Positions 6,923-59,791 of a DNA stretch of 64,000 nucleotides are shown piece by piece (the first letter of the stretch is position 1; each line of letters begins with the position of its first letter). The stretch is from Candidatus Saccharimonadales bacterium (GTDB lineage Bacteria > Patescibacteriota > Saccharimonadia > Saccharimonadales > UBA4665). The position numbers and the translations under genes are program-made. The stretch covers positions 750 through 64,749 of the forward strand of contig DATIHR010000022.1 in NCBI GenBank assembly GCA_035480575.1, given 5' to 3'. The notes under the pieces are model-generated. The model ran no database searches, had not been told where the DNA came from, and saw only the letters and a list, made by a program, of their open reading frames with translations.

Positions 6923-6928
6923 TTTTAG

Positions 6929-9182: not shown

Positions 9183-9198
9183 CGGTTATTATGATTAC

Positions 9199-9720: not shown

Positions 9721-9759
9721 CGCTGTGGTAGTATGGAACCATACGCAAGGATAGTAACA

Positions 9760-10128: not shown

Positions 10129-10130
10129 CC

Positions 10131-11462: not shown

Positions 11463-11474
11463 GCCACTCGCTAT

Positions 11475-12122: not shown

Positions 12123-12124
12123 GG

Positions 12125-12979
12125 TTATTTGCAATAATCACTTGTTTTGCCAGCTTTGGCATCGCCGCCAGGCAGGGCAAGGGCCGCGGTTTTATCGGCT
12201 GCGGGCAGGTCGTTCAGCCAACAAATGCCATAGTACGCTTGCGATTTTACATCCGCGTGGGCAGATGCGTATGCGGCATTTTTGGAAGCTTCGTTGGGCT
12301 TACGCAAATCGTAGACGCCAAAATCCATGCTTACATTTAGGGCAGGGTCGGGGAATCCTACGGCGCTGGCAATACTGTCGCCTGCTTTGAATGGTTTAGG
12401 GGTACTAAAGTTGGTCGTTTGCGATTGGTTTGCTTTCGCCTCTGGTAGTCCATCTGCAAGCTGCTGGAATGCATCGCTTAGCGTCAGCAAGTGGTCGTAA
12501 CGCAGCATAATACCGCAGTCGTTTATAAAGTCGAACAAGTATTGCTCGGTACCGTTTTCTAGGTACCGTACTCCATCGACGGCAGTTGCATCCATAGCCA
12601 GCGACACATCGACGTCGTTATCTGTATTGTTGCCAAACAAAAAGCCACCATGTGGTTTGTACTGGTTACGGGTTTGGCCTGGGTACAATATGGCTGTTGC
12701 TTGGCTAATATCTACCGGACTTTGGCTTAAGAGCGGATCCGGGCATGTCGGTGGTGTTGCCGCCGCTTTCCAGGCCGACCCATCGAATGCCCAGCTGGCC
12801 TGCGAAGTTTTATTGGATTTATTGCTTCTATTAACAGTAATTGCATTTTTAAATTCGCTGTTTTTGCCAAACACATAGTAGCCGGCGTATCCAACCACGC
12901 CCAGCATTACTAAAATAAGGAGCACAAGGAACACATGCCCGAAGCCTGCCTCGGAGCGTAATTGTTGTGTAGTTTTCAT
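12125..12979 (-). CDS. Prepilin-type N-terminus fused to an M23/LytM-like fold
   Basis: RSEAG/FGHV then a hydrophobic helix; PHGGF, RYDHL and FKAGDSIA elements. Confidence 0.55.
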   Translation of the reverse strand: MKTTQQLRSEAGFGHVFLVLLILVMLGVVGYAGYYVFGKNSEFKNAITVNRSNKSNKTSQASWAFDGSAWKAAATPPTCPDPLLSQSPVDISQATAILYPGQTRNQYKPHGGFLFGNNTDNDVDVSLAMDATAVDGVRYLENGTEQYLFDFINDCGIMLRYDHLLTLSDAFQQLADGLPEAKANQSQTTNFSTPKPFKAGDSIASAVGFPDPALNVSMDFGVYDLRKPNEASKNAAYASAHADVKSQAYYGICWLNDLPAADKTAALALPGGDAKAGKTSDYCK

Positions 12980-13095
12980 ATGTGTAACTATAGCGTGCCA
13001 GAGTGAGCAGCACAACGTGCTTGTGGTAATACGATAAAGTAGCGACGTTGTTACGTTGACGTTAGTAGTACTATCTTCTATGATGCGTGTCACAT

Positions 13096-14028
13096 ATGGG
13101 GCATCAGGAATACAACGAGTATTTTGTCGAGACTGCTGCGGGCGTGTTCAAGCCCGCTCCCTTAGTGCTTGCCGAGCAATTAACAGCCGACCAGGTCTGG
13201 GAATATAATCGTAATCCTGCACATCAGGGACCTACGGACCTGCGCTTTGAGCAAGGATCGGCAAACCTAGAGCTAGCACTCTGCTTGCCTCGGCCTGAAA
13301 ATCAAGGAGCATTTGCCCGCGCAAAGACTATTTTTACTGATATATATAGGGGCGTCGATTCTCGCAAGCAATATGCTGCAGGCATTTTTTTGGATTACAT
13401 GCCGGTTTACGCTAGGCGTATGGAGTGTGTATCGATTCCATCGTCCACACGCAGGCAGCTATACGAACGTCTTGGCAGGAAAGCGCTTAGCCAAGCACAC
13501 GGAGAGTCGGGTGCCGCGCTAGGCAATTTTTATGAGACAACGTTTTTAGGCTTATGCGCTGGCATGGAGGACGAGCGATACTTAGCCTTTCCTGCGTCCG
13601 TGCGCGAAGAGGCGTCATCGCCACGGCATAAGAACTATAACCACGACGCCTATTGGGTCCATCCTGCGAAAGTTCCAGTCCAGCTTAAAAGTAGCAAAGA
13701 TAGCGACTCTAAGACCTACGAATCCACAGTGCCCAAAATAGCTGTTCGCGACTATATTATGCGGTCTGCAGTTGATGTGTATGGCCAGGATAGATGGCAG
13801 GCAACGCGGCGCAGTAGCCCGCGACGCTACTCTATGCCTCGCAGTAGTATGGCGCAGCTGTTTCGTTTGACGGGCGAATGCATGATTGCCGACGCCGAGC
13901 AACGGCACCTACCTAAAGATAGGGCAGAGTACCTCGCGCTGCTTGAGTATACGATGCAAAGACGCATCGATACCATCTGGGCTAAGTACTCGCATCGTGC
14001 TGCGCAATCATTAATTTCAGGGGAATGA
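13096..14028 (+). CDS. Hypothetical protein, PD-(D/E)XK-like; paralogue 1
   Basis: NHDAYW...VPVQLKS motif; clear paralogue of the next gene. Confidence 0.55.
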   Translation: MGHQEYNEYFVETAAGVFKPAPLVLAEQLTADQVWEYNRNPAHQGPTDLRFEQGSANLELALCLPRPENQGAFARAKTIFTDIYRGVDSRKQYAAGIFLDYMPVYARRMECVSIPSSTRRQLYERLGRKALSQAHGESGAALGNFYETTFLGLCAGMEDERYLAFPASVREEASSPRHKNYNHDAYWVHPAKVPVQLKSSKDSDSKTYESTVPKIAVRDYIMRSAVDVYGQDRWQATRRSSPRRYSMPRSSMAQLFRLTGECMIADAEQRHLPKDRAEYLALLEYTMQRRIDTIWAKYSHRAAQSLISGE

Positions 14029-14039
14029 GGGGGTAGTAT

Positions 14040-14909
14040 ATGGAAGTACCCCCGCAGCTTTTGCTTGCCGAGCAATTAACAGCCGACCAGGTTTCTGTGC
14101 TTAACCGCTACCCTATCCGTGACGATCATCGCCACGGCAAGGCTTATAGCCGGGCCACGAGATATCTAGAGCTAGCGCTCTGCCTGCCTGAGCCCGAGGA
14201 ACAAGAGGAGGCACTGCGGCGTGCTGCAATTCGTTTTACTAAGCTCCAGGAAAGTAGCCGTACGTATGGGTATATGGCTGGTATTTTTTTGGACTACATG
14301 CCGGTCTACGCGAGGCGAATAGAGCAACTCTCGCAGCCTTCAATGCTTCGCAGGCAATTATACGGGCAATTGGGCAAGAAAGCTCTGGGCCTGGAACTCG
14401 AGCGGCCAGGTCGCGATTTGGGTCGTTTTTATGAAACCGTATTTTTAGGCTTATGCGCTGGCATGGAGGACGAACGTTATTTTGCCTTTCCTGCGTCCGT
14501 GCGCGAAGAGGCTACGTCACCCAAGAGTGCCAACTACAATCACGACGCCTATTGGTTACAGAGCGGCAAAATTCCGGTGCAACTAAAAAGCGCCAGATCC
14601 CACGGTGGACAGGCCTATAAGGTCCCCATTATAAGGGTGCGCGATTGTCTATTACGAAGCGCAATCGATGTGTATGGCAAGGGGCCGCTAGAGGCCCGGC
14701 CACGTGCGGGGCCTGGACGAACCTATACAATGCCTCCTGATCGTATGGGGAAGTTGTTTCGTTTGACCGGCGAGCTGATGGTTGCCGATGCCCAGCAACA
14801 GACGATACCAGAGGCCGACGCAGCGTACCTGACAAGTCTGCAAGGCAATATACAGAAGCGGATACGCACCGTTTGGTCTACGTATTCGCTGCCGGTTATA
14901 GAGGCATGA
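14040..14909 (+). CDS. Hypothetical protein, PD-(D/E)XK-like; paralogue 2
   Basis: NHDAYW...IPVQLKS; shares FLGLCAGMEDERY and FPASVREEA with paralogue 1. Confidence 0.55.
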   Translation: MEVPPQLLLAEQLTADQVSVLNRYPIRDDHRHGKAYSRATRYLELALCLPEPEEQEEALRRAAIRFTKLQESSRTYGYMAGIFLDYMPVYARRIEQLSQPSMLRRQLYGQLGKKALGLELERPGRDLGRFYETVFLGLCAGMEDERYFAFPASVREEATSPKSANYNHDAYWLQSGKIPVQLKSARSHGGQAYKVPIIRVRDCLLRSAIDVYGKGPLEARPRAGPGRTYTMPPDRMGKLFRLTGELMVADAQQQTIPEADAAYLTSLQGNIQKRIRTVWSTYSLPVIEA

Positions 14910-14993
14910 CATCGCTGGACTGTGGGTGAGGGTAATCACAGTACACTATTCGTACAGGCAGTATACTAGTAATAAATATAAGGAGGGGCAGGC

Positions 14994-16157
14994 ATGAAAC
15001 GAGCGCGACTGTTGGTGGGGGCAATTGTTATTACTGCGTTCGCGTTATTGGGCGCGGCCCGTATGGCGAGTGCCTACAGCATACACACTGGCGATGCGGT
15101 GAATGTATCGGGCAATAAGGTTGTACAAGATACGGTATACGCTGCCGGCAGCACCGTGAATATTGCAAGCGAAGTATACGGCGATGTCTTTTGTGCCGGC
15201 CAAACGGTTACGATTACGGGTACCGTGCATGGGGACGTTATATGTGCCGGCCAAACGATTACTATTACCGGCCACGTTACCGGCGATGTACGCCTGGCCG
15301 GCCAAAACGTTACTGTCAGCGCACCGGTTACCGGTAACGCCACGTTAGCAGGCCAAACATTTGTACTGTCGTCTTCTGGTTCTATTGGCGGCGATGCAAC
15401 CGTAGGCTCTAGTAGCAGCACCCTTCGCGGGCCTATTGGGCGCGATTTAGTAGTTGGCGGCGGCACAGTCGTTATAGATAGCAGTGTTGGCCGCGACATA
15501 AAGGCCCAAGCGCAATCTATGGAACTGGCCAGTGGCGCACACGTCGGCGGTTCGATTAGCCTGGTAAGTCAGCAAGACGTCAAGAAGGATAAAGGAGCGG
15601 TTGTTGTTGGCAAAATAAGCCGCACCGAACCCACCCACGAACAGGCACGGTCTAAGCACGGGGCGGTGTTTGGCTTTGGGTTTGGCTGGTTTGTGTACTG
15701 GCTGGTGGCGCTGTTGGTTATGACACTAGCACTGACATTGCTATTCCCACGGCTGTTTGTAGGTGTCAGTGCCCATGCAATACCGCGCCCATGGAAAGCA
15801 TTGCTTGTTGGTTTTGTAGCAAGTTTGGTTGTGCCTATTATTGTGCTCCTGTCGCTGGTAAGTATCGTCGGTATACCGCTCGCGATTGTGGTTGCCTGCT
15901 TGTGGCTTGCAGCGCTGCTTGTAAGTGGCCCGCTTTTTGGGTTTTACCTGGGCAGGCTTATACTGCGTGGCCCGTCTAGCCCACTGCTGATCGCATTAGT
16001 AGGCGTCGGCGCCTTAGTCATTTTGTACTTTATTCCTATTATCGGCGCACTGACGTTAGCGGCAAGTACCTGGATTGGCACCGGCATGTTGCTGTTGCAT
16101 ATATTTCGTAGTACCCCAAAGCCTGCATACGGGGCAATCGAGCACAAGTCTAAGTAA
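14994..16157 (+). CDS. Bactofilin-like beta-helix repeat protein with a C-terminal membrane domain
   Basis: Signal peptide; repeated GDVxxAGQTVTITG units; about 5 C-terminal TMs. Confidence 0.75.
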   Translation: MKRARLLVGAIVITAFALLGAARMASAYSIHTGDAVNVSGNKVVQDTVYAAGSTVNIASEVYGDVFCAGQTVTITGTVHGDVICAGQTITITGHVTGDVRLAGQNVTVSAPVTGNATLAGQTFVLSSSGSIGGDATVGSSSSTLRGPIGRDLVVGGGTVVIDSSVGRDIKAQAQSMELASGAHVGGSISLVSQQDVKKDKGAVVVGKISRTEPTHEQARSKHGAVFGFGFGWFVYWLVALLVMTLALTLLFPRLFVGVSAHAIPRPWKALLVGFVASLVVPIIVLLSLVSIVGIPLAIVVACLWLAALLVSGPLFGFYLGRLILRGPSSPLLIALVGVGALVILYFIPIIGALTLAASTWIGTGMLLLHIFRSTPKPAYGAIEHKSK

Positions 16158-16229
16158 AGTGTCTAAATATTGACGGATTACCTCTGTTTTGGTACTATAT
16201 ATCTAGTTTGCCTATCTAGGCACAGATAT

Positions 16230-16304
16230 CGCGGGGTGGAGCAGCGGCAGCTCGCGTGGCTCATAACCACGAGGTCAGAGGTTCGAGTCCTCTCCCCGCA
16301 ACCA
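16230..16304 (+). tRNA. Initiator tRNA-fMet (CAU)
   Basis: C1:A72 mismatch, CTCATAA loop, CCA encoded; TTGACG-17-TACTAT promoter upstream. Confidence 0.9.
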
Positions 16305-16337
16305 AACAAGGCACCCACTTTCGTGGGTGTTTTGTTT
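16305..16337 (+). terminator. Intrinsic terminator of tRNA-fMet
   Basis: GCACCCAC-TTTC-GTGGGTGT followed by a T-rich tract. Confidence 0.8.
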
Positions 16338-16473
16338 TGGTTTTGAGAGTCGGGCTCAAACCTGCGGTAGCATGTATCACAGACACAGCCTGATATAGTT
16401 AAGCTAATGGCCAATAAAGTGAAAGCCCCGCTTGGTGCAAGTCTTGTAGTATTGTCGTCAATTTTAATATTTT

Positions 16474-17427
16474 TTATCCAAATGTGAATGCGTAGGCCTC
16501 GGCGCCGGGTTCGGCAAATGTGATTGTTAGTGTCGCATCTTGTACTACACCTTGCTGGCGAATAAGTTGGTATAACCGGCCGTACTGCAGCAGGCCTGCT
16601 CCATGCTCGTCGATATCTGCCCCGTGGGCTCTGCCTGGCGCCTTATCGTTCAGGAGCACGCGGAAGGGTATGGGTTTGTGGCTGCCTGGCGACAGCACCA
16701 AGTGCGCATCGCGGGCATGGAAGCGGAAGGCAATACTGCCTCCGGGGCTGGCAAGTACTGCTCGTTCGGCGTCTATGGTCCATGTGCCAGTACATGCCCA
16801 ATGGTTGCGGGCAAGTTGAGCGGGCGCTGTGTAGGTAAGGGGTTGATCTATGAGCGCATTCTCGGGCGAGGCAAAGTTTTGGCCGCGCGCGTACCCCAGG
16901 TATGTCTCGGGCGTGCGCAGGCTGGGCCAATCGGCCTCGGCTTCAATGTTTGCCCCAGTAACGACTACTGGTTTACGTTCCACACCTAATAATTGTTGAA
17001 TAACATGCTCTGATTCCTCGTAGCGTCCCTCGCCGAAGTGTTCGTCGCGAATCACTCCGTTTTTGTTTACAAAGTAGAGCGCGGGCCAGTAGTGGTTAGC
17101 GAACGCGTTCCAAATTGCGTAGTTGCTGTCGACCGCGACGGGGTAGTGAATACCCCGGTCTTTTATTGCTTGCTGCACAGCGGCAACATCTTGTTCAAAC
17201 GAAAATTCTGGCGTGTGCACACCAATAACAACCAGACTATCCTTTTTGTAGGTGTCCGCCCAAGCACGAACGTATGGCTCGGTACGCAGCCAGTTAATAC
17301 ATGTAAGGGTCCAAAAGTTTACCACTACCGCGCTGCCGCGCAATGCATCTACTGTAAGTGGCTTGGTGTTCAGCCATGCAGTTGCTCCGTCCAGCGGGGG
17401 CATATGCAGGCGCTCCGATAGGGCCAT
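16474..17427 (-). CDS. DipZ-like redoxin (thioredoxin fold plus C-terminal beta-sandwich), without a CcdA membrane domain
   Basis: NFWTLTCINWLRT, GVHTPEF, YWPALY, HFGEGRY and TPETYLG motifs. Confidence 0.85.
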   Translation of the reverse strand: MALSERLHMPPLDGATAWLNTKPLTVDALRGSAVVVNFWTLTCINWLRTEPYVRAWADTYKKDSLVVIGVHTPEFSFEQDVAAVQQAIKDRGIHYPVAVDSNYAIWNAFANHYWPALYFVNKNGVIRDEHFGEGRYEESEHVIQQLLGVERKPVVVTGANIEAEADWPSLRTPETYLGYARGQNFASPENALIDQPLTYTAPAQLARNHWACTGTWTIDAERAVLASPGGSIAFRFHARDAHLVLSPGSHKPIPFRVLLNDKAPGRAHGADIDEHGAGLLQYGRLYQLIRQQGVVQDATLTITFAEPGAEAYAFTFG

Positions 17428-17495
17428 GTATTTATTTTATACCTCTTGTGCTAGTCGGCATTGAGCAACAACACCCCTATGTATAATCATTAATT

Positions 17496-18224
17496 ATGAG
17501 TAATGCTATCAAGTACAAGCAGACTTTCGATTTTTTAAGTGCGCCTTTTTTGCCGACCAGTCCCGAGCCGGCGGTTGCATATGGTAGGAGCGACCGGCTG
17601 GTGGCTGTTGCTTTGGGTGATTTAATTGCTGATTCTTTGGTGAGTAAGGCGGTTATTACCGGCGGTGTCGGCAAGGATACGCAAGCTTTACTTACGCAAG
17701 GATACCGCTCTGAAGCTCAATTTTTGAACGCGCAATTGTGGGAGGATTCTTGGGAGCGCGGCTACAAACTGCCCGATGTCTGGCTTGACGAAAAAGCCTT
17801 GCATAGGGGCGAAAATGCACGCAACTCGGTTAAGAGACTTGGCAGATTGTCATCCACGACCGCCGTCGCCCACGCAACCCAATGCCGCAGCCTGGCTGCA
17901 AGCCTTGAGTTTGCGATTGCACAGAAGACTGGTATGCGACCAACAATACACAGGAAGCCGACAGCCTATACATTTAACCCAGAAAATCCTAGCGACCAGG
18001 CCGAGGCAGCACGGGAGCTGTTGATTTTAGCGGATTGGTCAGCAAAGGGCTGGCTGCTCTCGCAGCCTTTCCTGCCCGAAGACCTCATTGATTTTGCCCG
18101 CGACGTACATGGTACCGCGCCAGAACCGGTGTCCTCATTAAAGACAGCAGTATTACATGCCTTACCCAGGCGTTTGCGGCTGCGTGCTATTCAGGCTGCT
18201 GCCAAAGCGCCGGTAGCCAGATAG
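17496..18224 (+). CDS. Divergent YdcF/DUF218-like protein
   Basis: ITGGVG, SEAQ and LDEKALHRGENARNS resemble DUF218 motifs. Confidence 0.55.
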   Translation: MSNAIKYKQTFDFLSAPFLPTSPEPAVAYGRSDRLVAVALGDLIADSLVSKAVITGGVGKDTQALLTQGYRSEAQFLNAQLWEDSWERGYKLPDVWLDEKALHRGENARNSVKRLGRLSSTTAVAHATQCRSLAASLEFAIAQKTGMRPTIHRKPTAYTFNPENPSDQAEAARELLILADWSAKGWLLSQPFLPEDLIDFARDVHGTAPEPVSSLKTAVLHALPRRLRLRAIQAAAKAPVAR

Positions 18225-18268
18225 TACGCCGGCCTTTTGTTTTGGGGAAGGCACGGTACAATAAAGGC

Positions 18269-18682
18269 ATGATTATTACGATTTCCACCCAGGGCCGGCG
18301 CCAGGTCGTAGACCTTACTAAAATGCTTACCGAGCAAGCACGCGGTAAGGACGGCCTTATGAGTTTGTTTGTGTTGCATAGCAGCGCTGCCATTACCACC
18401 GCCAACCTCGACCCAGGTACCGACCTGGACCTGCTTGATGCGCTTGCAGGCATAACGCCGCAATTGCAGTGGCGGCACCCACACAACCCTGCGCATGCGC
18501 CCGACCATTTACTGGCTTCTATTGTTGGCCCTGGTTTAGTGGTGCCGGTTAGCCAGGGCACGGTACGGCTGGGCGAATGGCAGCATATTGTGCTGATCGA
18601 TTTTAACGGCCCCCGGGAATGTGCCGTAGAGGTTACTTTTATAGAGAATTTAAAACGCGACGAGCCGGCATTTCAATTGTAA
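18269..18682 (+). CDS. yjbQ: YjbQ/UPF0047 family protein
   Basis: HSSAAIT, HxHNPAHAPDH and LGEWQHIVLIDFNGPR. Confidence 0.9.
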   Translation: MIITISTQGRRQVVDLTKMLTEQARGKDGLMSLFVLHSSAAITTANLDPGTDLDLLDALAGITPQLQWRHPHNPAHAPDHLLASIVGPGLVVPVSQGTVRLGEWQHIVLIDFNGPRECAVEVTFIENLKRDEPAFQL

Positions 18683-18775
18683 AAACTGTGGATAAACAGA
18701 GGTGTTCGTAAAAGATTCTGCTTGTAAGTTTAGACCATATCGTTACACTAAATAACAAGTGGCGAAAAACACTAA

Positions 18776-18823
18776 TTGACAAAACATAAAAAATATGTAT
18801 AATAATTAGTGTTGTGATCACAA
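18776..18823 (+). promoter_or_regulatory. Sigma70 promoter with a downstream palindromic operator
   Basis: TTGACA(18776)-16-TATAAT(18798); perfect palindrome TTGTGATCACAA at 18812-18823. Confidence 0.7.
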
Positions 18824-18865
18824 ACAAAAACATTCACAAAAAATAAAAATAAAAAAGGTTATGAC

Positions 18866-18961
18866 ATGACAGTCAAAACTAAAAGTGGGCTAAGCTTTGA
18901 GTTCGCAAAAACAAGCGATAAAAAGATACTTGCCCTGGACAGCTTGCTTAGCAAAGTATAG
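18866..18961 (+). CDS. 31-aa small ORF (MTVKTKSGLSFEFAKTSDKKILALDSLLSKV)
   Basis: Only ORF between a consensus promoter and a terminator; AAGG upstream. Confidence 0.45.
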   Translation: MTVKTKSGLSFEFAKTSDKKILALDSLLSKV

Positions 18962-18980
18962 GCAAGTTACCAAAACACCA

Positions 18981-19016
18981 AAGAAAAAGGCCCTACAAAA
19001 CCAGGGCCTTTTTCTT
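18981..19016. terminator. Bidirectional intrinsic terminator
   Basis: 14-bp perfect stem AAGAAAAAGGCCCT/AGGGCCTTTTTCTT between convergent genes. Confidence 0.85.
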
Positions 19017-19031
19017 TTGGTCTTGGATGAC

Positions 19032-19304
19032 TTATTTGCGGTTCGTTGGAACGGCGCGAGCAGACAGTTTGGTAATAACCAGGCTATACAGGAGCGCCCA
19101 AGTAATAGCGTTTACTAAAAAGATACCTAAGCCAATAAAGCAAATGCGTAAAATGGTTCGGCTTGCGTCGTAGTTTAGTAGGCCAACTAGGCCGGCAATG
19201 ATAACGCCACATACACTGACAACAATGTACGTGTGCTGCAGCTTATCGCGCTCGGTGTGCCGACTGTTCCACTTGACAAGCATCGTCTTCAGGGTGCTAA
19301 TCAT
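19032..19304 (-). CDS. Small two-TM membrane protein, apparently leaderless
   Basis: 90 aa; TTGACA-17-TATAAT ends 6 nt before the ATG. Confidence 0.7.
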   Translation of the reverse strand: MISTLKTMLVKWNSRHTERDKLQHTYIVVSVCGVIIAGLVGLLNYDASRTILRICFIGLGIFLVNAITWALLYSLVITKLSARAVPTNRK

Positions 19305-19411
19305 GTGTATATTATAACCTCTTAGCTTTTATATGTCAATTAGTGGCAAATGTTACAGCGTTCAACGTTGTACAGTGCGTATGCTAAAGGAGCCAGGAGG
19401 GTAGGCACAAT

Positions 19412-19519
19412 ATGAGTAAGTTTAGGTACAATATGACGCCAAAAGAGCGCCGCATTGCAGCGTACAAGCACAGCAAATTACACGGTAAGCATGGCGGTTC
19501 TGCACGCTACGCTATGTAG
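19412..19519 (+). CDS. 35-aa basic small protein (MSKFRYNMTPKERRIAAYKHSKLHGKHGGSARYAM)
   Basis: GGAGG upstream; fills the gap exactly and stops 3 nt from the convergent APH stop. Confidence 0.45.
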   Translation: MSKFRYNMTPKERRIAAYKHSKLHGKHGGSARYAM

Positions 19520-19522
19520 ACA

Positions 19523-20446
19523 TTACCAAAGTAGTGCGAGCGTTTTATCGGTAACAGCTTTTAGACCGTCCCAGTTTTGTTGAAAGGCATTCCAGCCTTG
19601 GGCATCAAGCCCGATATGCAGTTTGTAGCACAGCATGCGCTCTTTGAAGTTGTTGACCTGCAGGCCTGTAGCTTCGTAATGGGCGGCCGCTTGTTCGTCC
19701 CAGTTAATGTCTTTCATAGCGTGATACCAGGGCGACCAAAAGGAGAGCCAAGCGAGGTCGTACAAAAAATCGCCGCGCATGGAGTTGCCCCAGTCCAGGA
19801 CGCCAGCAATATGGCCGTCCTCGACAAGCACGTTTTTGTAGAGCAAGTCGCTGTGTATAAGGTGCGGTTCTTCGGGGCAAAAGTGCACGAGTTTTTGCAG
19901 TTGGTCGAGCGCCTGGTTAAAGCCATTCAGGCCAACGGGCGAGGCGGCAAGTTTGTCTTTCCAGCCGTGCATGCGGCTATCTATGTTGTCATTGCCGGCG
20001 TCGGCAATATGTTCTTGCCACGAGCTATATGGCCCTATGCCTTTGCCGTTCCACCGGCCGTAGCCGCTCAGTTCCGCTGTACTGGCATTGCGCAGCCCAT
20101 CCAGCATCTCGAGTACGGCTGGTACGGTGCGCTGCATGTCGGCTTGGTTAAGGCTGTCTAGTATGTGCCCTTGTATGTATTCGGATATGGCAAAATAGCC
20201 ATCCAACGCTTCGCCAACTTCCAGAATGCGCGGGATGGGTAGTTTTTCGCCGGCAAAGCTGGCAGCAAGCTCGTCCTTTAAAAAGTCTTCCTCGCGCTGG
20301 CTAAACCGTATAACGTGCTGGACACCGGAATACATGTAGCAAAAGGCTTGCGACGATGCGCCCCCGTTAATAATGGTTACTTCGTTTACGGCAGGACCAA
20401 TGTGTTCGGTTAAGAATGCAGTTACTTGGTCTATGCTCAGGGCCAT
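19523..20446 (-). CDS. Aminoglycoside phosphotransferase family kinase (APH(4)/hygromycin-kinase-like)
   Basis: HSDLLYKNVLV and GVLDWG motifs; AAGGAG Shine-Dalgarno before the ATG at 20446. Confidence 0.85.
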   Translation of the reverse strand: MALSIDQVTAFLTEHIGPAVNEVTIINGGASSQAFCYMYSGVQHVIRFSQREEDFLKDELAASFAGEKLPIPRILEVGEALDGYFAISEYIQGHILDSLNQADMQRTVPAVLEMLDGLRNASTAELSGYGRWNGKGIGPYSSWQEHIADAGNDNIDSRMHGWKDKLAASPVGLNGFNQALDQLQKLVHFCPEEPHLIHSDLLYKNVLVEDGHIAGVLDWGNSMRGDFLYDLAWLSFWSPWYHAMKDINWDEQAAAHYEATGLQVNNFKERMLCYKLHIGLDAQGWNAFQQNWDGLKAVTDKTLALLW

Positions 20447-20476
20447 GGCGTACTCCTTTCCCCCATTGTATATCAA

Positions 20477-20638
20477 AGAACCCATTTCAAATCTCCCCCC
20501 AGCTACAAAACCACCTGACGGTGCCATATTTCAGTTTTGTTCGTCACCGTAACTACAGTTACGCTTCCTCGCAAGAACTAAAATCTGGCACTCGCCAGCT
20601 GCTTTTTCGCTATCGCGGGGAGATCTGAAATGGGTTCT
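20477..20638. repeat. 162-bp rod-like imperfect palindrome
   Basis: 22-bp terminal inverted repeats (21/22), inner inverted repeat 20521-20537/20575-20591 (14/17) and apical CGTAAC-TACA-GTTACG. Confidence 0.85.
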
Positions 20639-20714
20639 AGGTAAAATACTTCACTGCCAAAGTGCCTGCTTGTTTCTATAGTGCAATGAGCTTACTAATG
20701 TAAGGGGGTGCGCC

Positions 20715-20873
20715 ATGGGTTTTCTAGATGATCTTAAGAGTGATATGAGTGACGAATCGCGCGAGCGCTACGAAGAGCTAAAGCACCGCGAAGCCGCGGG
20801 CGACCTGGACGACCAAGCGCGGGCCGAACTGAACCAGCTTCGTGAGCGGTTCGAATATAGCGAGAGCAGCTAG
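20715..20873 (+). CDS. 52-aa acidic helical small protein (MGFLDDLKSDMSDESRERYEEL...)
   Basis: AAGGGGGT upstream; amphipathic, protein-like composition. Confidence 0.6.
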   Translation: MGFLDDLKSDMSDESRERYEELKHREAAGDLDDQARAELNQLRERFEYSESS

Positions 20874-20912
20874 CCAACAGGTTAAAAATCTGCTATATTT
20901 ACCCTGTTATAC

Positions 20913-20989
20913 GGCAGGGTAGCTCAGCTGGTTAGAGCACAGGACTCATAAGCCTGGGGTCGCGAGTTCAAGTCTCGCCCCTGCTACCA
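20913..20989 (+). tRNA. Elongator tRNA-Met (CAU)
   Basis: GGCAGGG acceptor stem, CTCATAA loop, CCA encoded; A31.G39 mismatch. Confidence 0.85.
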
Positions 20990-47387: not shown

Positions 47388-48821
47388 GTGCTGCAAAAAA
47401 TATATGCCAGGCGCCTAAAACGGGCGCCAATTGTTATCTCGGTTTGTTTGGCTCTATTTGCCGGTATTGGACTGGCTCGATATTACCCCGGCGTGTCTTT
47501 TGGTTGGCTTTGGCCTGTTGGCGTTTTGGTGGCGGTAACGCTGCGCAAGCACAATGTGGCTACGTTGCTTTGTTTAGCGCTGCTTGGCTTTGGTATTGGC
47601 TGGTGGCGGGGTTCGGTGGTTATGTACCGTATGGCGCCTTATAGCCAGCTGGCACTAACCAAGGTGACAGTCGTGGGTAGGGCAACGGACGATGCGGTGT
47701 ACGGCGAGCAATCGCAGTTGACATTTGGGTTAAGTGTCGTGCATGTAGTACAGCCAGTGCAGACTGCCTTGCCGGGGACACTTAAAGTATCCGGTTATGG
47801 GGTTGGTGGTGTATATCGGGGTGACAGAGTGGTGGTGTCCGGCAAGTTATACCCAACTCGTGGGAGTAACCAGGCGAGTATCAGTTTTGCCGAGCTAAAG
47901 ATTGTGGAGCGGGGGAGTTCTGGCATTGATGCGTTCCGGCGTAACTTTGCAGCGGGGTTGCAGTCGGCATTGCCCGAACCTTTGGCATCACTGGGCTTGG
48001 GCCTCCTTATTGGGCAGCGCAGCACGTTGCCGGCGGAAGTAACGAGCGTGCTGCTAACTGTTGGCCTAACGCACATAATTGCGGTGTCGGGATACAACCT
48101 GACGATTATTATCCAGGCAGTGCGGCGTCTTATGGGCAAGCGTTCTAAGTTTCAAACTATGGCGGTGTGCTTGCTATTAATGGGTACGTTTTTGTTGATT
48201 ACAGGCAGTAGCCCCTCAATTGTACGCGCTAGCATAATTAGCATGTTAAGTTTAGGTGTTTGGTATTACGGGCGGACCATTAAGCCATTGGTATTGCTGC
48301 TAACAGCAGGCGCGATAAGTGTGCTGCTAACGCCACTATACTTGTGGGGTAACGTTAGCTGGTATTTATCTTTTTTGGCATTTTTTGGTGTGCTGGTGTT
48401 AGCCCCATTGGTGACAAAGCGGCTGTATGGCAGGCGCACTCCAAAAATAATTGGGCAGATCGTTATAGAAAGCTCGTGTGCGCAAATAATGACCGTGCCC
48501 TACGTGCTGTATATATTTGGGCATATTTCATTTGTAGCATTGCCGGCAAATGTGTTGGTGGTGGCTGCTGTGCCGCTGGCAATGCTACTGTCCCTTATTG
48601 CAGGCCTCGCAGGTATGTTCATGCCAATTGTGGCCGGCTGGCTTGCTTGGCCGGCAGCCTGCGTACTGTTGTATATGCTGGATGTTTCCAGCTTACTTGC
48701 CGAGTTGCCATTTGCCGCTAGGAATAACACCTACAGTACTGCTACTGCCATGGCGTGTGCTTATGGCGTTATCGGGTTTGTGGCAGTGCTACTGTGGCGG
48801 CGGGCTGGGTCGGCCAGTTAG
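47388..48821 (+). CDS. comEC: ComEC/Rec2 DNA uptake channel (OB and competence domains, no beta-lactamase domain)
   Basis: GLTHIIAVSGYN, SIVRAS, LSFLAF and SLPANV-type motifs. Confidence 0.92.
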   Translation: MLQKIYARRLKRAPIVISVCLALFAGIGLARYYPGVSFGWLWPVGVLVAVTLRKHNVATLLCLALLGFGIGWWRGSVVMYRMAPYSQLALTKVTVVGRATDDAVYGEQSQLTFGLSVVHVVQPVQTALPGTLKVSGYGVGGVYRGDRVVVSGKLYPTRGSNQASISFAELKIVERGSSGIDAFRRNFAAGLQSALPEPLASLGLGLLIGQRSTLPAEVTSVLLTVGLTHIIAVSGYNLTIIIQAVRRLMGKRSKFQTMAVCLLLMGTFLLITGSSPSIVRASIISMLSLGVWYYGRTIKPLVLLLTAGAISVLLTPLYLWGNVSWYLSFLAFFGVLVLAPLVTKRLYGRRTPKIIGQIVIESSCAQIMTVPYVLYIFGHISFVALPANVLVVAAVPLAMLLSLIAGLAGMFMPIVAGWLAWPAACVLLYMLDVSSLLAELPFAARNNTYSTATAMACAYGVIGFVAVLLWRRAGSAS

Positions 48822-49436
48822 GTAGTCTATTTCGTCACCTTGTCGTGCCCGGCGAATGTAGCCAAACGTTAGCACGGTATCCGGCGGAATATGCTGGTTG
48901 GCTACTGCTTGTAGCGCGACTTCAAGGCTTGGAGGGCATTCGGTGTAAAATTTGAGCCAACCCACATGTATCTGAGGATGTTTATTCGATTTTGATTTAT
49001 TGCCGAGTCTTTTGACTGTTTCTTGGCTGACCTGACGCTCTTGGTGCATACTTGAGCGTGCAAGCTGCCCGCAGAATATTTTGCGATCTGGCTGGCCGCC
49101 CTGCAGTGAGTGGTTGAGACAGGCTGTCCCCACTTTTTTGCTGAACGATGGCAGTGAAGCAAGTTGTTCGTGTATACGATCTGCTATCTCGTCATAGCCC
49201 AGATATGTCAGCTCTGAGTCTGGCGCTGCATTCTGGACGGAGTGCTCGATAAAATTGCCACCAACGATTGGTATGGAAATTTTGTTAGGATCCATAAAGC
49301 GTACCGTGTTGTCGCTAATGGGCATATATTTGGTGACGGTATGCATAAGGGCTACGCTGAGTGCACTAATTACCTCTGGCTTGGGCAATGAAAGGTCTCG
49401 TTTAAAAACAACAATGTCCGGCGAGTGGTTAGGCAT
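48789..49436 (-). CDS. Tandem paralogue C, unknown function
   Basis: Shares IVGGN, PDSxL, PDR, QLA, HIPP and RQG with the next two; start inferred from the shared upstream motif. Confidence 0.65.
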   Translation of the reverse strand: MPNHSPDIVVFKRDLSLPKPEVISALSVALMHTVTKYMPISDNTVRFMDPNKISIPIVGGNFIEHSVQNAAPDSELTYLGYDEIADRIHEQLASLPSFSKKVGTACLNHSLQGGQPDRKIFCGQLARSSMHQERQVSQETVKRLGNKSKSNKHPQIHVGWLKFYTECPPSLEVALQAVANQHIPPDTVLTFGYIRRARQGDEIDYLTGRPSPPPQ

Positions 49437-49487
49437 GCAGCCGAATATAGCATACATTGCCGCTACTGGCTATACGGGGCCTCAGTC

Positions 49488-50120
49488 TTAAAGTCTCAGA
49501 TACTTATCTTGTTCGCTACCTTGCCGTATGCGTTTGACGGGGTCAAATATGAGTTGGCTGTTCGGCGGAATATGTTCGTTCGTTACCTTTATTAAATCCT
49601 CTTCCAATGATTTGGGGCATTGCGTAAGGAACTTTATCCAACGCAAGGCGTGCCGTCGAGAGTATGGAGGTGGCGTTAGGACACCCCCGAGTGCCGTCAA
49701 CGCTGCCTTGCCTAGATGGCGCTCTTCTAGGATGCTGGACTCGGCCAATTGTGTGCCGTACATTTTACGATCGGGTTTTCTGCCTTGTAGCTTATGAGCC
49801 AAAACAGAAATAGTTGTTGGGTCGGCGTACATGGGCGTGGCTGATATTTCTTCTTCTATGGCATCGGCTATTTGATCGTACGTAAGATGTACGAGTTCTG
49901 AATCGGGGTGGGCGGTCCTCATGGCATATGCTATGGCATTACCGCCAACTATACTTATGGCGCACTTTGCCGGATGGCTAAAACGCACCGAGTTTTTGTC
50001 GATAGGCATGTACTGCCCCACGACCCCAATAAGGTTGGCTTGGAGTTCACCAATAACCTGTGGCTCGGGCCAAACAAGCGGCCGCTTAAAGGTAATAATG
50101 TCAGGCGACAGTTCGGGCAT
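49488..50120 (-). CDS. Tandem paralogue B, unknown function
   Basis: Same motifs as paralogue C; ATG follows TATATTCGGCTGC. Confidence 0.65.
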   Translation of the reverse strand: MPELSPDIITFKRPLVWPEPQVIGELQANLIGVVGQYMPIDKNSVRFSHPAKCAISIVGGNAIAYAMRTAHPDSELVHLTYDQIADAIEEEISATPMYADPTTISVLAHKLQGRKPDRKMYGTQLAESSILEERHLGKAALTALGGVLTPPPYSRRHALRWIKFLTQCPKSLEEDLIKVTNEHIPPNSQLIFDPVKRIRQGSEQDKYLRL

Positions 50121-50161
50121 GCAGCCGAATATACCACATACCGCCACTACAGGGCTATACG

Positions 50162-50796
50162 TTACGTTATTTCTAAGTACCGATTTTTTTCGTCGCCCTG
50201 CCTCATTGATCTAACGCGGTCAAATACCATTGGCGTCCCTGGTGGAATGTGATCATTAGTGACTGTTATTAATTCGTTCACTAGAGGTTCGGGGCAGTCA
50301 ACTGCAAACTGTATCCAGGATACGGCATGCCAGGGAACGCGCCTACGTGGCAATGGAATATTGCCAAGCATTCTGAGTGCTGCTTGGCCTATAAAGCGCT
50401 CGTCTAGTATGGGCGATTCAGCTAGCTGTGTGCCGAACACTCTGCGGTCGGGCCGTCCGCCTACCATGCTGTGGGCAAAAGCGTGCGTAGCTAGTGGTTT
50501 GGTGTAGGTGGGAAGGATTGACACCTTTTCTTCTATGGCATCGGCGATCTGGTGCGGGGTTATGTTTGCGAGTGCCGAATCGGGGTCTGCGGTTTTAACG
50601 GCATGTTCAATGACATTGCCGCCTACAATACTTATGGCACAGTTGTTCGGGTTGCTAAAGAGTGCCGAATTCGAATGTATCGACATATAGCCTTTGACAA
50701 CTTGGATAAGGTCGGCCTGAAGCCTGCCGACCACGTCGGCTTCAGGCGAGAGGAGCTGACGTTAAAGACGACAAGATTAGGAGACAGATCGGACAT
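50162..50796 (-). pseudogene. Tandem paralogue A with an apparent 1-nt deletion near 50762
   Basis: The ATG at 50796 gives MSDLSPNLVVF, homologous to MPELSPDIITF; homology then continues in another frame (RQLLSPEADVVGRLQ). Span is 635 nt. Confidence 0.6.
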
Positions 50797-55758: not shown

Positions 55759-55795
55759 CCCCAGGCCCACGTCTTACCGTAGGGGCAAAAAGGCG

Positions 55796-56341
55796 TTAGT
55801 TTATGATGCGTACAAAGGGTGCGTATCTGTTGCGGTGGCCTTTGGGTAGGACAAGTCTGTGCTGCACGGTTTGTGCGCCTGCCCGCATAATTTCTAGGCC
55901 GGTAGCCATGGCTGCTGGAAAATCTTCACTGGGGTCCTCTGGAAAGTTTGTCGGCCTGTTATTGTTGCGCTGGTGGCTGGCTGGAATGTATGGTTGTTCG
56001 GCAGAAGCTCGACGGAAGGTAAATGTATCGTACACCGGGTTCCTGCCTAATGAGCTCTGACTAATTTTTAGTTCGCCGGCGGAAACGCGAAGGTCGCCGC
56101 ATATGGCATGGATCGTTGCGCTGCCAGCGGCTTGCTGTAGATCGTCCGGGCCAAAGATAACGCCTATTGCCAGGTTGCCGGCGTGTAGTTTGGCCTGTAT
56201 GTCCGGATAGATTTTTGTCTCGATGGCAGCGGCAACAACTGTGTTTGCCCATGTCTCTGGGGCATGCGCTAGGCGTTCGCGGCCTGAGCGGGTGGGAATA
56301 TGTAAATTGATATGTTTTTGCGAAAAGTCAAAATCAGCCAT
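55796..56341 (-). CDS. Hypothetical protein
   Basis: 181-aa ORF; TGCTATAGT extended -10 just upstream. Confidence 0.6.
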   Translation of the reverse strand: MADFDFSQKHINLHIPTRSGRERLAHAPETWANTVVAAAIETKIYPDIQAKLHAGNLAIGVIFGPDDLQQAAGSATIHAICGDLRVSAGELKISQSSLGRNPVYDTFTFRRASAEQPYIPASHQRNNNRPTNFPEDPSEDFPAAMATGLEIMRAGAQTVQHRLVLPKGHRNRYAPFVRIIN

Positions 56342-56386
56342 AAGAACTGACTATAGCATCCTTTCGTTGCGAGTGTAACCTGTTGG

Positions 56387-56437
56387 TTAGTTTAGGCTGG
56401 AGCGGGTGTATTTTTCGCCGCCCTCAATCATGACGAC
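56387..56437 (-). repeat. Second copy of the pilin gene 3' end (att-like direct repeat)
   Basis: 49/51 identical to 57995-58045; the first 41 bp are identical. Confidence 0.95.
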
Positions 56438-56516
56438 TTGTACCGCTCCCTCCGTTCCTCGCGAAAATACGCACGCAGCACCCTAGGCACCCGCTTATTG
56501 CAGGCGCAAACCCTGC

Positions 56517-56543
56517 GTCATTCCGGACTTGATCCGGAATCCA
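56517..56543. repeat. REP-like hairpin GTCATTCCGGACTTGATCCGGAATCCA
   Basis: Perfect 8-bp stem ATTCCGGA/TCCGGAAT preceded by GTC. Confidence 0.7.
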
Positions 56544-56554
56544 GGACTAGCCCT

Positions 56555-57286
56555 CTAGTTTGATGAGTTGCCTAAATAACTCTGACCCAAGAAGAACTTA
56601 CCCTTTTCTGTTAAGCCAATTCTTTCGCCCTCTACCTGTACCAGATCGTTTGTGTGCGCCACTGCAATCCCGTCTTTAGGGAGGTCAATACCGACGCGCC
56701 TTCCGAGATCTTTGTCATAGTAAGTGGTAACCCTGCCGCCGTGTTTATAGACCGATTCGGCAATTTCGCCCAAAAAATGGACTAATCCGTTTTTAGCAAA
56801 GGCATTGTATTCTTTTTGCCACACGATCCTCGGGTCCTGTTTGGCGGCTTGTTGTTCCTTTTTTGCCGTGTTAATCTCTGCTTCAAGCGTTCTTTGCGCC
56901 TGGAGCGCTAGGCGCTCCTTTTTGATTTCAATTTTCTCTTCTTCCTCAATCTTTACACGACGTTTATCAACCTTATGCCTTTGTTCTTGCCGATAGGCAT
57001 GTATAAGAACATATTTTGGGACAGGCCATATAAATACGATGGTCAATAACAGTGGCAAAAGATATGCGGGTACTGATGACCAGCCGTGCCAACCAAAAAA
57101 GTATGTGTTTACGTACTCGTTTTTTAAGAGACCGAACTTATCATAGATTTTGTCCTCGCCAGTAAAAAGCGTAGTATAGATGCCTTGCCAATGAAAGGCT
57201 GCCCAAAAGAAAAAATAGGTACCCAACGCGGCCGAGACTACTCTTTTCCGAATCGCTTCTGCTATAGAATCTGTTAGCTCACTCAC
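56555..57286 (-). CDS. Island cargo 2: two TMs, coiled coil and C-terminal winged-helix-like region
   Basis: 243 aa; ends IGLTEKGKFFL; starts 6 nt after cargo 1. Confidence 0.7.
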   Translation of the reverse strand: MSELTDSIAEAIRKRVVSAALGTYFFFWAAFHWQGIYTTLFTGEDKIYDKFGLLKNEYVNTYFFGWHGWSSVPAYLLPLLLTIVFIWPVPKYVLIHAYRQEQRHKVDKRRVKIEEEEKIEIKKERLALQAQRTLEAEINTAKKEQQAAKQDPRIVWQKEYNAFAKNGLVHFLGEIAESVYKHGGRVTTYYDKDLGRRVGIDLPKDGIAVAHTNDLVQVEGERIGLTEKGKFFLGQSYLGNSSN

Positions 57287-57292
57287 TCTTAA

Positions 57293-57846
57293 CTACTGTC
57301 CACCCATGAATTTTTTTAGAACTTCAGATAACACAGATCCTGATACTGTAGCGAATGTTGGATTGGCAAGGATATCCTTTAAACTGTCCAAGATTCCATG
57401 TTTATCCGTACCCTCGGGCATAGCCTCAACTTCCTTAAGTAGGCCGGCCATGAACTCGCCAACCGTAATTTGGCAATGGAGCTGTTATCACCAAATGTGG
57501 CGTCGCCGTGGACGGTAACTTGACTAAATTTTGATTGTAGAGTGGCGCGGGCTTCGGCTTGTTTCTGATTTATTAAAGCATCCTGTGCCCGGGCGTCTTC
57601 TGGCATGCGTTCATTCAGGACAACTAAGAGTTCATTGACGGCATCGATTGCGTCGTCGTTATAGTTAGGTCCATCCATTATTACAATGCCCGACTCTAGC
57701 GCACGTTCAAGTATAGACATATTACCATCTCCGTAGGGTTTCACGGCTGCCCTTACATCGTTGGCCCACACGGCAAATTTTGCTGACCCCATTTTGGTGC
57801 CTCGAAGCTCGTTACCTTCTTTTATTAGTGCCTCGAATTCTGACAC
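57293..57846 (-). pseudogene. Island cargo 1, about 184 aa, with an apparent 1-nt frameshift at 57467-57484
   Basis: A protein-like tail QITVGEFMAGLLKEVEAMP...LKKFMGGQ lies in another frame and stops at 57293; span is 554 nt. Confidence 0.65.
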
Positions 57847-57917
57847 TTGACCCTCTTTTCTCCCACATCGCGGTTTTTATTCCTTGGTGCTATCCCCGCA
57901 CAGCAGTATTTAGCCAG

Positions 57918-57946
57918 ATTGTATTATTAGGAAACTATATTGTCAA
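57918..57946 (-). promoter_or_regulatory. Sigma70 promoter of the island cargo
   Basis: TTGACA-17-TACAAT on the minus strand. Confidence 0.75.
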
Positions 57947-57994
57947 TGAAAAAATAATATGCTTATTTTAACCGGTTTAACGATAGTAATTGAA

Positions 57995-58474
57995 TTAGTT
58001 TAGGCTGGAGCGGGTGTATTTTTCGCCGCCCTCAAGCATGGCGACGAGAGTGTAATGTGCGCAGGGGTTCTTTTTGTTGTCACAGGCCGAGCCGTCGGTG
58101 CCGGTCACTTGGTAACTGTAGCATTCGTTGGTGGCTTTGACGGCAAAGCTGGCTTGGTCTTTTTCTTTGCAGGCGGTATTGGCAATTTTCCAGCTTGGGT
58201 CTTGTATAGCATCGTCCTTAAGTCGTTTAAGGTTCGTGCTACGCCAGTTGTTGCTTGCTAGGTTGGCAAATGTGGGGTAGGTATTAGTCTGCGCGTAGTA
58301 TGCCTCTAGTTGGCCTTTTATGGTGTCTATATCTGCTTTGCGCTCGGCATTACGGTTTTTAGCCTGTACGCCGCTGTACGTAAAGGCAATCAGGCTGGCT
58401 AAAATGAACAGTACAATAAGCACCACAAGTAGTTCGATAATGGTAAAACCGGAGGATTTGTGAGGAATTTTCAT
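57995..58474 (-). CDS. Type IV pilin/GspG-like pilin
   Basis: G/FTIIELLVVLIVL; RNAERKADI...LEAYY...YP. Confidence 0.92.
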   Translation of the reverse strand: MKIPHKSSGFTIIELLVVLIVLFILASLIAFTYSGVQAKNRNAERKADIDTIKGQLEAYYAQTNTYPTFANLASNNWRSTNLKRLKDDAIQDPSWKIANTACKEKDQASFAVKATNECYSYQVTGTDGSACDNKKNPCAHYTLVAMLEGGEKYTRSSLN

Positions 58475-58510: not shown

Positions 58511-59791
58511 TCAAGCCACGGTATGTACTGCCCGTAATACCTCAGTAATGGTGGTTTGCCCGCGCAGTGCTTTAATAAGGCCATCTAGACCCATGGGGAT
58601 AAACCCTTCTTTAATAGCGGCTGTTTGTATGGTTGGCACAGCGTGCATGTCGCGGTCCATAAGGAGTTTGTGTAAGGCGCTGGTGTTTTCTAGTACCTCG
58701 GTAATGGCGGTACGGCCGACATAGCTGCTGCGATCGCAGGTATCGCAGCCTGCTTCGCTTGGCCGCCATAGGTGGGTAATGCTTGTTGGTGTGCTGTTTA
58801 ATTGTTTTACATCACCAAAAATAGCTGGTGCGGCCTGGCTTTCTAGCTCGTAGATTCTTTTGTAGGCATTGGCACCTGTAATACCAAAACTTTCGGCAAG
58901 CTCACGTTGTTCGTCGCGACTGAGGGCGTAGCGCTCACGACAATCGGGGCAGAGCGTTCGCACTAAGCGTTGCCCGACGCTTGCGCGGAGGCAGGTTATG
59001 AGTAAAAACGGTTCTATACCTGCTGCCCGTACGCGTAAGACGGCTCGAACGCTGTTGTCGGCGTGCATGCCACTCAGCAGTAGGTGGCCGCTCGTTGCGG
59101 CATGGACGGCCTGGGCGGCGGTGTCGCTGTCCGGTACATCGCCCAGCATAATGATGTTTGGGTCTTGTTTTAATGCAGCCCGTAGGCCTGTACTCATGGT
59201 CATGGCGCTACTGTCGCCCAGGTAGGTTTGGTTGACACCGGGCAAACGATGTTTGCGCTGCGTCTCGACGGTGGCAATGCTGACGAGCGGGCTGTTTAAG
59301 GCGTGCACCATGCTAAACAGCGTCGTGGCGGTCCCGCCGTGCCGTGGCCCTGCGACTAGCACTAGCCCGGCAGGACTGGTAAGCACGTGCTGCAATGTTT
59401 GCAGGCCTTTGCCCCAAAACCCAAGGTCCGCCAGCGCGGGTGGGGCGCCCCGCCTAATGCTTAGGTGCAGCACTGCTTTCTCGCCGCCAAATACAGGCAT
59501 AGTGGCCACGCGTACCGTCACGTGTCCGCCCTCGGCGTCGGCGACATAGGTACCCTCTTGGGGTGCGCGCGTTTCATTAACGTTCAGGTCGGCAAGTGTT
59601 TTAAGCTGGGCCATTACGCCGCTTAATGAGTCGCGGGGCAGTTTATGGATACCCCGTAAACTGCCATCTATGCGGTAGCGCACCAGCACGAACCGTTCGT
59701 GCGGTTCAATGTGTATATCGCTGGCACCGCGCTTAACGCCCATTGCAACAAGCATGGCGAGCGTTTCCGCAACTTGCTTATCCTTCCTCAT
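58511..59791 (-). CDS. PilB/GspE-family protein with degenerate ATPase motifs
   Basis: [14 protein letters not shown] and [10 protein letters not shown] are present. Walker A reads [10 protein letters not shown] and Walker B reads MLGDVPD. Confidence 0.88.

Follow-up and report, generated by a model that had tools for sequence, protein, structure and literature searches.

Directly behind an intact type IV pilin gene, in a 64,000-nt stretch of DNA from Candidatus Saccharimonadales (contig DATIHR010000022.1; hereafter the window, whose positions supply all coordinates below), lies a 1.6-kb insert that carries two genes and is bounded on either side by a copy of the last 51 nt of the pilin coding sequence. 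The host is of the uncultured soil Saccharibacteria (TM7) type, represented by a metagenome-assembled genome (MAG). The insert is compositionally foreign DNA and a genuine insertion, the pilin gene has remained whole, and the interval that it occupies is a hotspot for accessory genes among related genomes. With regard to its mechanism of integration, we infer that the insert is a decayed or non-autonomous element flanked by attachment (att) sites, resembling a cis-mobilisable element (CIME). We place the probability of this reading at roughly 0.4.

The boundaries of the insert are drawn by a single direct repeat. An earlier note on this DNA had reported that the last 51 bp of the pilin gene, including its stop, recur 1608 bp away, and a repeat search recovers the same two copies, identical at 49/51 positions and enclosing an interior of 1557 nt (Table 1). 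Their identical 41-nt core has exactly two occurrences in the window and none in 100 shuffles. Translation of both copies bears out the further claim that the two differences are conservative and in frame, the proximal copy ending in …VAMLEGGEKYTRSSLN and the distal copy in …VVMIEGGEKYTRSSLN, each followed by a stop. Identity is bordered on one side precisely by the stop codon and on the other by codon -16. Read in frame, the distal copy retains the pilin's stop codon, and an in-frame stop lies 31 codons upstream of it. No pilin similarity, in DNA or protein, is found outside the 51 nt at the distal copy, and the match ends abruptly at both edges. A dyad at the inner edge of the repeat, TCGTCGCC-N9-GGCGGCGA, was not used, being only 7/8 at the DNA level with a chance expectation of about 0.2.

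The two copies have not diverged evenly. The pilin has 93 orthologues (best identity 74%), among which the C-terminus, …HYTLTAxLEGGEKYVKSSLN before the stop, is strongly conserved. At both variable positions, the conserved base and residue of the relatives are kept in the pilin copy, and the state of the distal copy is derived; the distal copy has Ile at a residue for which 91/91 orthologues show Leu or Phe. The orthologous 51 nt of 20 relatives are always nearer to the pilin copy than to the distal copy, by one or two matches. Both mismatches fall within 11 nt at the element-side (inner) edge of the distal copy, an arrangement with a chance of about 5%. Further, the CCAAC… that follows the distal stop resembles the native post-stop context of several relatives, and for this reason we locate the original pilin end and its downstream DNA at the distal copy. 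As judged from these sequences, the insertion point is the last 51 nt of the pilin, and the duplicated sequence is the lineage's own.

Composition sets the insert apart from its surroundings. The GC content of its interior is 45.3%, compared with 51.0 +/- 2.2% in windows of the same size, placing it in the lowest 1%, and its GC skew is opposite to that of neighbouring genes on the same strand.

The site itself is variable among relatives. These were gathered by a PilB-based scan with one genome per species, in which Saccharibacteria matches lay at 40-79% identity. About 20 relatives (labels within L001-L028, and L115 and L195) are syntenic at the locus and form the base for the site comparison, with the syntenic PilB-pilin pair found across L001-L028. 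A metagenome scan with a pilin alignment was dominated by generic prepilin N-termini and yielded one true orthologue, L115. The conserved order is RecX-NUDIX-RecA, PilB-pilin, then a PH-domain gene followed by RuvB-RuvA-RuvC; in the window, the gene for the PH-domain membrane protein and RuvB lie on the plus strand, convergent to the pilin. The earlier note had named empty or differently filled sites in related genomes as a thing to look for, and both kinds exist. In 15 relatives the pilin-PH gap is 9-340 nt and usually less than 200 bp (L002, L003, L005, L006, L008-L010, L012-L014, L016-L018, L028, and L115 at 340 nt). Four others are filled: L001 with a gene of 298 aa, L004 with a 398-aa DUF1861 protein, L011 with genes of 288 aa and 181 aa, and L195 with a DUF3800 protein. 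These fillings are unrelated to one another and to the three genes of the window. Since the site is either empty or holds unrelated cargo, in five lineages including the window, the pilin-PH interval is a chromosomal accessory-gene hotspot.

The third of the window's genes, orf181, is a separate, lineage-specific cargo gene that lies outside the repeats. It has a native-like GC content (52.7%) and its own promoter-like site (56379-56350). No match was found in the syntenic relatives, and it has 7 representative clusters among 1.8 billion. Its end (55795-55808, …ATAAACTAAC) resembles the pilin end (…CTAAACTAAC) at 12/14 positions, including the stop and the next base. The resemblance may be due to chance, or an earlier insertion may have left a third repeat here that has since decayed.

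A scan of all compared loci for repeat-flanked inserts returned only tandem pilin paralogues and copies of insertion sequences (IS). Tandem paralogues offer another origin for the distal copy, in which an ancestral pilin1-cargo-pilin2 arrangement lost all of pilin2 but its last 51 nt. Such paralogues are common in type IV pilus (T4P) loci (for example L124, L143 and L151), and a distal copy in frame with the same stop is what such a remnant would leave. However, all of the approximately 20 syntenic relatives have a single pilin at the locus, and pilin similarity is absent beyond the 51 nt. To account for the near-identity, together with the codons particular to this lineage, the duplication would also have to be very recent and to have spanned 1.6 kb of foreign DNA. 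We therefore regard a paralogue remnant as improbable.

The integrated state was examined in MAG assemblies and in unitigs of metagenome runs. A second soil Saccharibacteria MAG, GCA_964476865.1, has 3 mismatches to the window in 12.7 kb; the contig CAYZCG010000007.1 differs over this length at the single bases 52459, 53465 and 62309, which makes the window a separate assembly of the same population. The same integrated order appears in the two MAG assemblies, which are independent of each other and have contigs of 63.7 and 70.9 kb. Metagenome runs were consulted as Logan unitigs and contigs at k=31, with pieces sought in five runs and depth taken in four samples. The unitigs of the five runs hold every piece of the arrangement. 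Depths of insert and flanks were 17.8 vs 17.7/18.8, 9.2 vs 8.4/10.4, 7.4 vs 8.8/6.6, and about 4 vs 4.5.

These data also bear on an assembly ambiguity, in which an empty pilin site and a separate 1.6-kb circle bearing the 41-nt core were mis-threaded into one chromosome. The expected junctions are pilin body-core-CCAACAGG for the empty site and ...GGTACAA-GTCGTCATGATT-core-TTCAATTAC for the circle. With words of k=31 set against an identical core of 41 nt, neither junction has a diagnostic word, such that unitigs cannot separate the integrated state from the empty-plus-circle state. For the same reason, one unitig path (L110) was dropped as proof of the attL junction, since crossing a 41-nt repeat at k=31 is no proof. 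The depth of the core unitig (45.5 in run X1, 23.7 in run X2) is slightly above the sum of its neighbours. Against mis-threading stand the shared order of two independent assemblies, the equal depth of element and flank in four samples of differing abundance, and the implausibility of a 1.6-kb circle that has no replication gene. An artefact of this kind is very improbable. The depth ratio speaks for one integrated copy per genome and against a free circle or a large empty-site subpopulation. The insert appears to be fixed in the sampled population and is decaying, its first cargo gene being frameshifted in three of four samples. Neither present mobility nor past mobility as a unit is supported.

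The interior between the repeat copies holds what the earlier note had listed, namely a consensus promoter, two cargo genes and no recombinase. Scans of Pfam and PADLOC gave no match to either cargo open reading frame (ORF), and PHROGs gave only a remote one, phrog_4780. The coordinates of the insert and its surroundings are collected in Table 1.

Table 1. Features of the pilin locus and its insert (window positions).
Feature	Position	Strand	Description
Whole variable region (hotspot)	55759-57994	.	Pilin stop to stop of the convergent PH-domain gene
orf181	55796-56341	minus	Separate lineage-specific cargo gene, 181 aa, outside the repeats
Distal repeat copy (attR-like)	56387-56437	minus	Non-coding; two derived substitutions
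Inverted degenerate partial repeat copy	56464-56485	.	17/22; 49 nt inside the insert from the distal copy
REP-like (repetitive extragenic palindrome) hairpin	56515-56547	.	Palindromic, core ATTCCGGA-CTTGA-TCCGGAAT; 8 nt past the orf243 stop
orf243 (cargo gene 2)	56555-57286	minus	243 aa
orf184 (cargo gene 1)	57293-57846	minus	155-aa ORF (57379-57846) and overlapping 52-aa ORF (57293-57451)
Sigma-70-type promoter	57918-57946	minus	TTGACA-17-TACAAT, 11/12 matches; inside the insert, upstream of orf184
Proximal repeat copy (attL-like)	57995-58045	minus	Last 16 pilin codons and stop; family-conserved Ala and Leu kept
Type IV (major-type) pilin gene	57995-58474	minus	Insertion target, intact, 159 aa; PF07963 N_methyl
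T2SSE/PilB-type ATPase	58511-59791	minus	Upstream of the pilin

The first cargo gene, orf184, is split by a -1 frameshift through loss of one A in an A4 run (57469-57471). The window, both MAG assemblies and runs X1, X3 and X4 share this allele, and run X2 (L082) has an intact version of 184 aa. The gene appears to be decaying or being lost, or its allele varies between samples. Its AlphaFold2 (AF2) model is helical and has no PDB match by Foldseek. The AF2 model of orf243, of high confidence (pLDDT, predicted local distance difference test, 91.8), comprises N-terminal membrane helices, a coiled coil of about 60 residues and a C-terminal winged-helix-like domain. Its fold matches are weak and MarR/Sso10a-like only (Foldseek against PDB, E about 0.3). 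It is the orf243 N-terminus that matches phrog_4780, a remote phage protein family of unknown function (E=2.9e-9). The stretch from the pilin stop to the promoter of the insert has no terminator-like site. Consequently, transcription of the cargo probably starts at two promoters, the strong one of the pilin and that of the insert itself, a prediction made from the sequence.

The REP-like palindrome beyond orf243 is followed by a second GC-rich hairpin. It reads GCGTCATTCCGGACTTGATCCGGAATCCAGGAC and is single-copy in the window. Unitigs that contain it have depths of 40-170 in soil runs, compared with about 18 for the host genome. Among IMG/VR contigs, 7 unrelated ones share its 27-nt core, which is present in multiple copies in L090-L092. 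These occurrences suggest a widespread family of repeated hairpins, possibly of non-Saccharibacteria origin. An interpretation of the hairpin as a fragment of a tRNA or non-coding RNA (ncRNA) was rejected, as Rfam and ARAGORN scans of the region found no tRNA or ncRNA family match. The inverted partial repeat copy, at 17/22, is matched by 0/268 random segments of 1557 nt from the window; read on the plus strand it gives RKYARSTLG, compared with EKYTRSSLN in the pilin.

Two in-frame copies of a pilin end, with conservative differences between them and a degenerate inverted copy nearby, might call to mind a functional silent cassette for C-terminal variation, whether pilS-like or shufflon-like. 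The earlier note had raised a possible swapping of the pilin C-terminus. Several observations speak against it. There is just one copy of 17 codons with two changes, one of them the Leu to Ile replacement that sets the distal copy apart from the orthologues, and no invertase is found nearby. No population variation at the two positions was seen in four samples (the variant would be GTCGTCATGATT, VVMI). Because the pilin comes out the same from any crossover within the identical 41-nt core, swapping of the C-terminus is not supported, and we consider a silent cassette hardly credible. Pilin antigenic variation by pilS silent cassettes, a shufflon or Piv inversion would call for several variant partial pilin copies, an invertase with short recombination sites, or both. 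It was rejected on similar grounds: exactly two copies in 64 kb, two conservative differences with one at an invariant position, and no adjacent invertase.

Elsewhere, both cargo genes are mobile orphans. Nearly all of the 41 homologues of orf243 are in Saccharibacteria-type contigs, in settings that include DUF4287/RsgA (L085), a position upstream of YebC-RuvCAB (L094-L099), and the company of NYN, Fic, DUF1508 and methyltransferase genes (L100). The DNA downstream of these homologues is unrelated to that of the window. On L094 (6001-10913), the homologue sits just upstream of YebC-RuvC-RuvA-RuvB-PH gene-pilin, in the same neighbourhood on the opposite side of the Ruv cluster. For orf184 there are 19 homologues and no family match; one is beside a gene for a helix-turn-helix (HTH) protein (L104) and another near metabolic genes (L107). 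On another Saccharibacteria-type contig, an orf184 homologue and a 451-aa gene lie between two IS1595-family transposase genes (L101 3152-6625 / L102 73-3546). This arrangement is flanked by 30-nt direct repeats 3444 nt apart, and is composite-transposon-like. Since the two families are never linked elsewhere, the 1.6-kb unit is not a recurrent element in the data searched.

Direct repeats of a gene's 3' end, with the gene left intact, are the classical product of Campbell-type site-specific integration. Elements with tyrosine recombinases integrate at the 3' ends of tRNAs or genes, where the identity block of their att sites restores the 3' end of the target. We propose that a horizontally acquired two-gene cassette may have entered by such a single-crossover event at the pilin 3' end. 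The incoming DNA would have brought a copy of the pilin's last 16 codons and stop, by which the pilin would have been rebuilt, and the original pilin end would have been pushed 1608 bp downstream to become a non-coding remnant. The remnant would then consist of attL, the promoter, the two moron-like genes, the hairpins and attR, and would lack a recombinase. The integrase would either have been lost through internal deletion or have acted in trans. The clustering of mismatches at the element-side edge fits a decay of similarity between attP and attB. Likewise, the moron-like build of the insert (promoter, genes, hairpins and low GC content) and its inverted 17/22 copy fit an integrative element. 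Also in favour are the conserved residues kept by the pilin copy alone, the native-like sequence past the distal stop, the opposite GC skew, the phage-family match of orf243, the variability of the site among relatives, and the orphan state of both cargo genes elsewhere.

CIMEs keep attL and attR in the absence of an integrase, and comprise att-flanked cargo that lacks integration and transfer genes (PMC5704250). Like those derived from streptococcal ICEs (integrative and conjugative elements) and IMEs (integrative and mobilisable elements), the insert has attL/attR-like repeats, in which the 3' end of a target gene left whole is duplicated, and cargo with no integration or transfer genes. It departs from them in being a single instance, for which no integrase-bearing ICE, IME or prophage cognate to the site is known or was found, in having a host from the candidate phyla radiation (CPR), and in a repeat that is lineage-specific rather than a conserved target. 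A cognate autonomous element was not found among the 20 syntenic relatives, IMG/VR, phages, plasmids or a metagenome scan for the core, the host genome being represented by the 64-kb window. When compared with tyrosine-recombinase elements, the insert has the direct repeats that restore a 3' end and lacks the integrase. It is best filed among the known att-flanked, recombinase-less remnants. The earlier note's view of the pilin as attB for a non-autonomous element is thus supported with respect to the foreign insert, the pilin stop and the 3'-end duplication; mobility as a unit is not supported.

A series of observations weighs against the CIME-like interpretation. There is no integrase in the insert and no tyrosine recombinase among 30 further ORFs of the window; the sole recombinase of the window is a large serine recombinase (LSR) beside a tRNA-Met, 48 kb away (6929-8506). 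No second pilin 3' copy was found in the 20 syntenic relatives, other filled hotspots included. Across six homologue contexts, the cargo genes are never adjacent to each other, near a pilin, or near a pilin-like 3' motif. Neither cargo nor element has matches in IMG/VR, GenBank phages or PLSDB plasmids, where no cognate integrase-bearing element was found, and the exact 41-nt core has 0 matches in IMG/VR and JGI metagenome contigs. Insert and flank stand at a depth ratio of 1:1. Finally, the lineage-specific codons ACC CGC (Thr-Arg) are common to both copies, while orthologous sites are only 31-38/51 identical. As a consequence, attP would have to be specific to one lineage, and duplication in situ explains the shared codons at least as simply.

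Such a duplication could have arisen by recombinase-independent capture, the main rival of the CIME-like reading. Transforming DNA may have entered at a staggered break or by homology-facilitated illegitimate recombination, with 51 nt duplicated in situ and the distal copy then drifting by two substitutions. The copies resemble each other (49/51) far more than they resemble their orthologues, with the lineage's own codons in both, and both differences are derived and lie in the unselected distal copy. The cassette does not recur, its two genes are never neighbours elsewhere, no recombinase or cognate element was found for it, and repeats are absent from the remaining filled hotspots. Natural competence is known in Saccharibacteria (PMC10633639), and the same 64 kb encodes ComEC, the T4P ATPase and pilin, and RecA. 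On the other hand, a target duplication of 51 bp is far longer than those known from bacterial transposition or end-joining. That it ends exactly at the stop codon needs selection or luck, the substitutions cluster in the 11 nt at the inner edge (at the chance level given above), and the junctions show no microhomology of note. We consider capture of this kind possible, if somewhat doubtful.

Other classes of element fit less well. An IS or transposon was rejected because there are no terminal inverted repeats and no transposase, and the duplication is 51 nt compared with the usual short 2-15 bp. An LSR element was rejected given the distance to the LSR and a 41-nt identical core that is unlike LSR sites. 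The attL and attR of such elements share only a few bases and have no identity blocks of 41-51 bp. An integron cassette was likewise rejected, there being no integrase, a promoter of its own, and no Rfam or attC-like family match. Phage morons share with the insert a self-contained build of promoter, gene or genes and hairpin, as well as lower GC content, and the insert has its remote PHROG match; it differs in having no surrounding prophage and no relatives in IMG/VR or GenBank phages.

Two comparisons concern the pilin genes of other bacteria. In Pseudomonas aeruginosa, variable and horizontally exchanged genes lie directly downstream of pilA within a conserved pilB-pilA neighbourhood. The site may be compared with the P. 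aeruginosa pilA accessory region in having variable genes behind a major pilin. However, the cargo described here has no pilin-modification domains, and the P. aeruginosa cassettes are not known to have flanking duplications of the pilin 3' end. In streptococci and lactococci, prophages integrate into the gene of the major competence pilin, comYC/comGC (PMC4774983). There, too, the insertion site is a major pilin gene of a naturally competent bacterium. Those insertions are whole prophages with an integrase that disrupt the gene, whereas here the pilin is intact and the insert is 1.6 kb with no recombinase.

Some other regions of the window carry features of their own. A PA14/RHS-repeat protein of 1527 aa, DUF4258 at its C-terminus, is encoded at 205-4788; small ORFs come next, and then the 525-aa LSR already mentioned. 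The 3' end of the LSR gene overlaps a tRNA-Met (8485-8560) on the other strand. A further integrated element, or else a polymorphic-toxin island, may occupy this stretch (205-8560). A span of 12.5 kb contains three tRNA-Met genes (at 8485, 16230 and 20913; region 8485-20989). Between the first two are mostly ORFs with no Pfam match, including tandem paralogues at 13087-14028 and 14040-14909. Further, three paralogous genes in tandem (repeat families D2/D3), of about 190-222 aa and with no Pfam match, occupy 48789-50734 on the minus strand, immediately downstream of ComEC (47388-48821).

Type IV pili have a central role in how CPR bacteria (Patescibacteria) live as epibionts and take up DNA. 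In these bacteria, mobile elements and routes of gene gain are poorly described. The finding documents an accessory-gene hotspot behind a pilin gene and one cleanly bounded insertion within it, which is useful for annotation and will not surprise specialists. A bolder interpretation, which we consider unlikely, is that the pilin 3' end is a true attachment site for small, recombinase-less Saccharibacteria cassettes that carry a copy of the pilin end and owe their movement to a recombinase of the host or of a helper, or to RecA following natural transformation. Insertion behind the most highly expressed gene of a surface structure would then have the cargo expressed together with the pilin. On this view the recombination site would include the inverted partial copy near attR, and the other cargo found at the hotspot in relatives would stem from older insertions that no longer show their repeats because of decay. 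Were the pilin 3' end such an attachment site, it would provide a handle on how accessory genes are gained and expressed in these reduced genomes, and a natural neutral insertion site for Saccharibacteria genetics.

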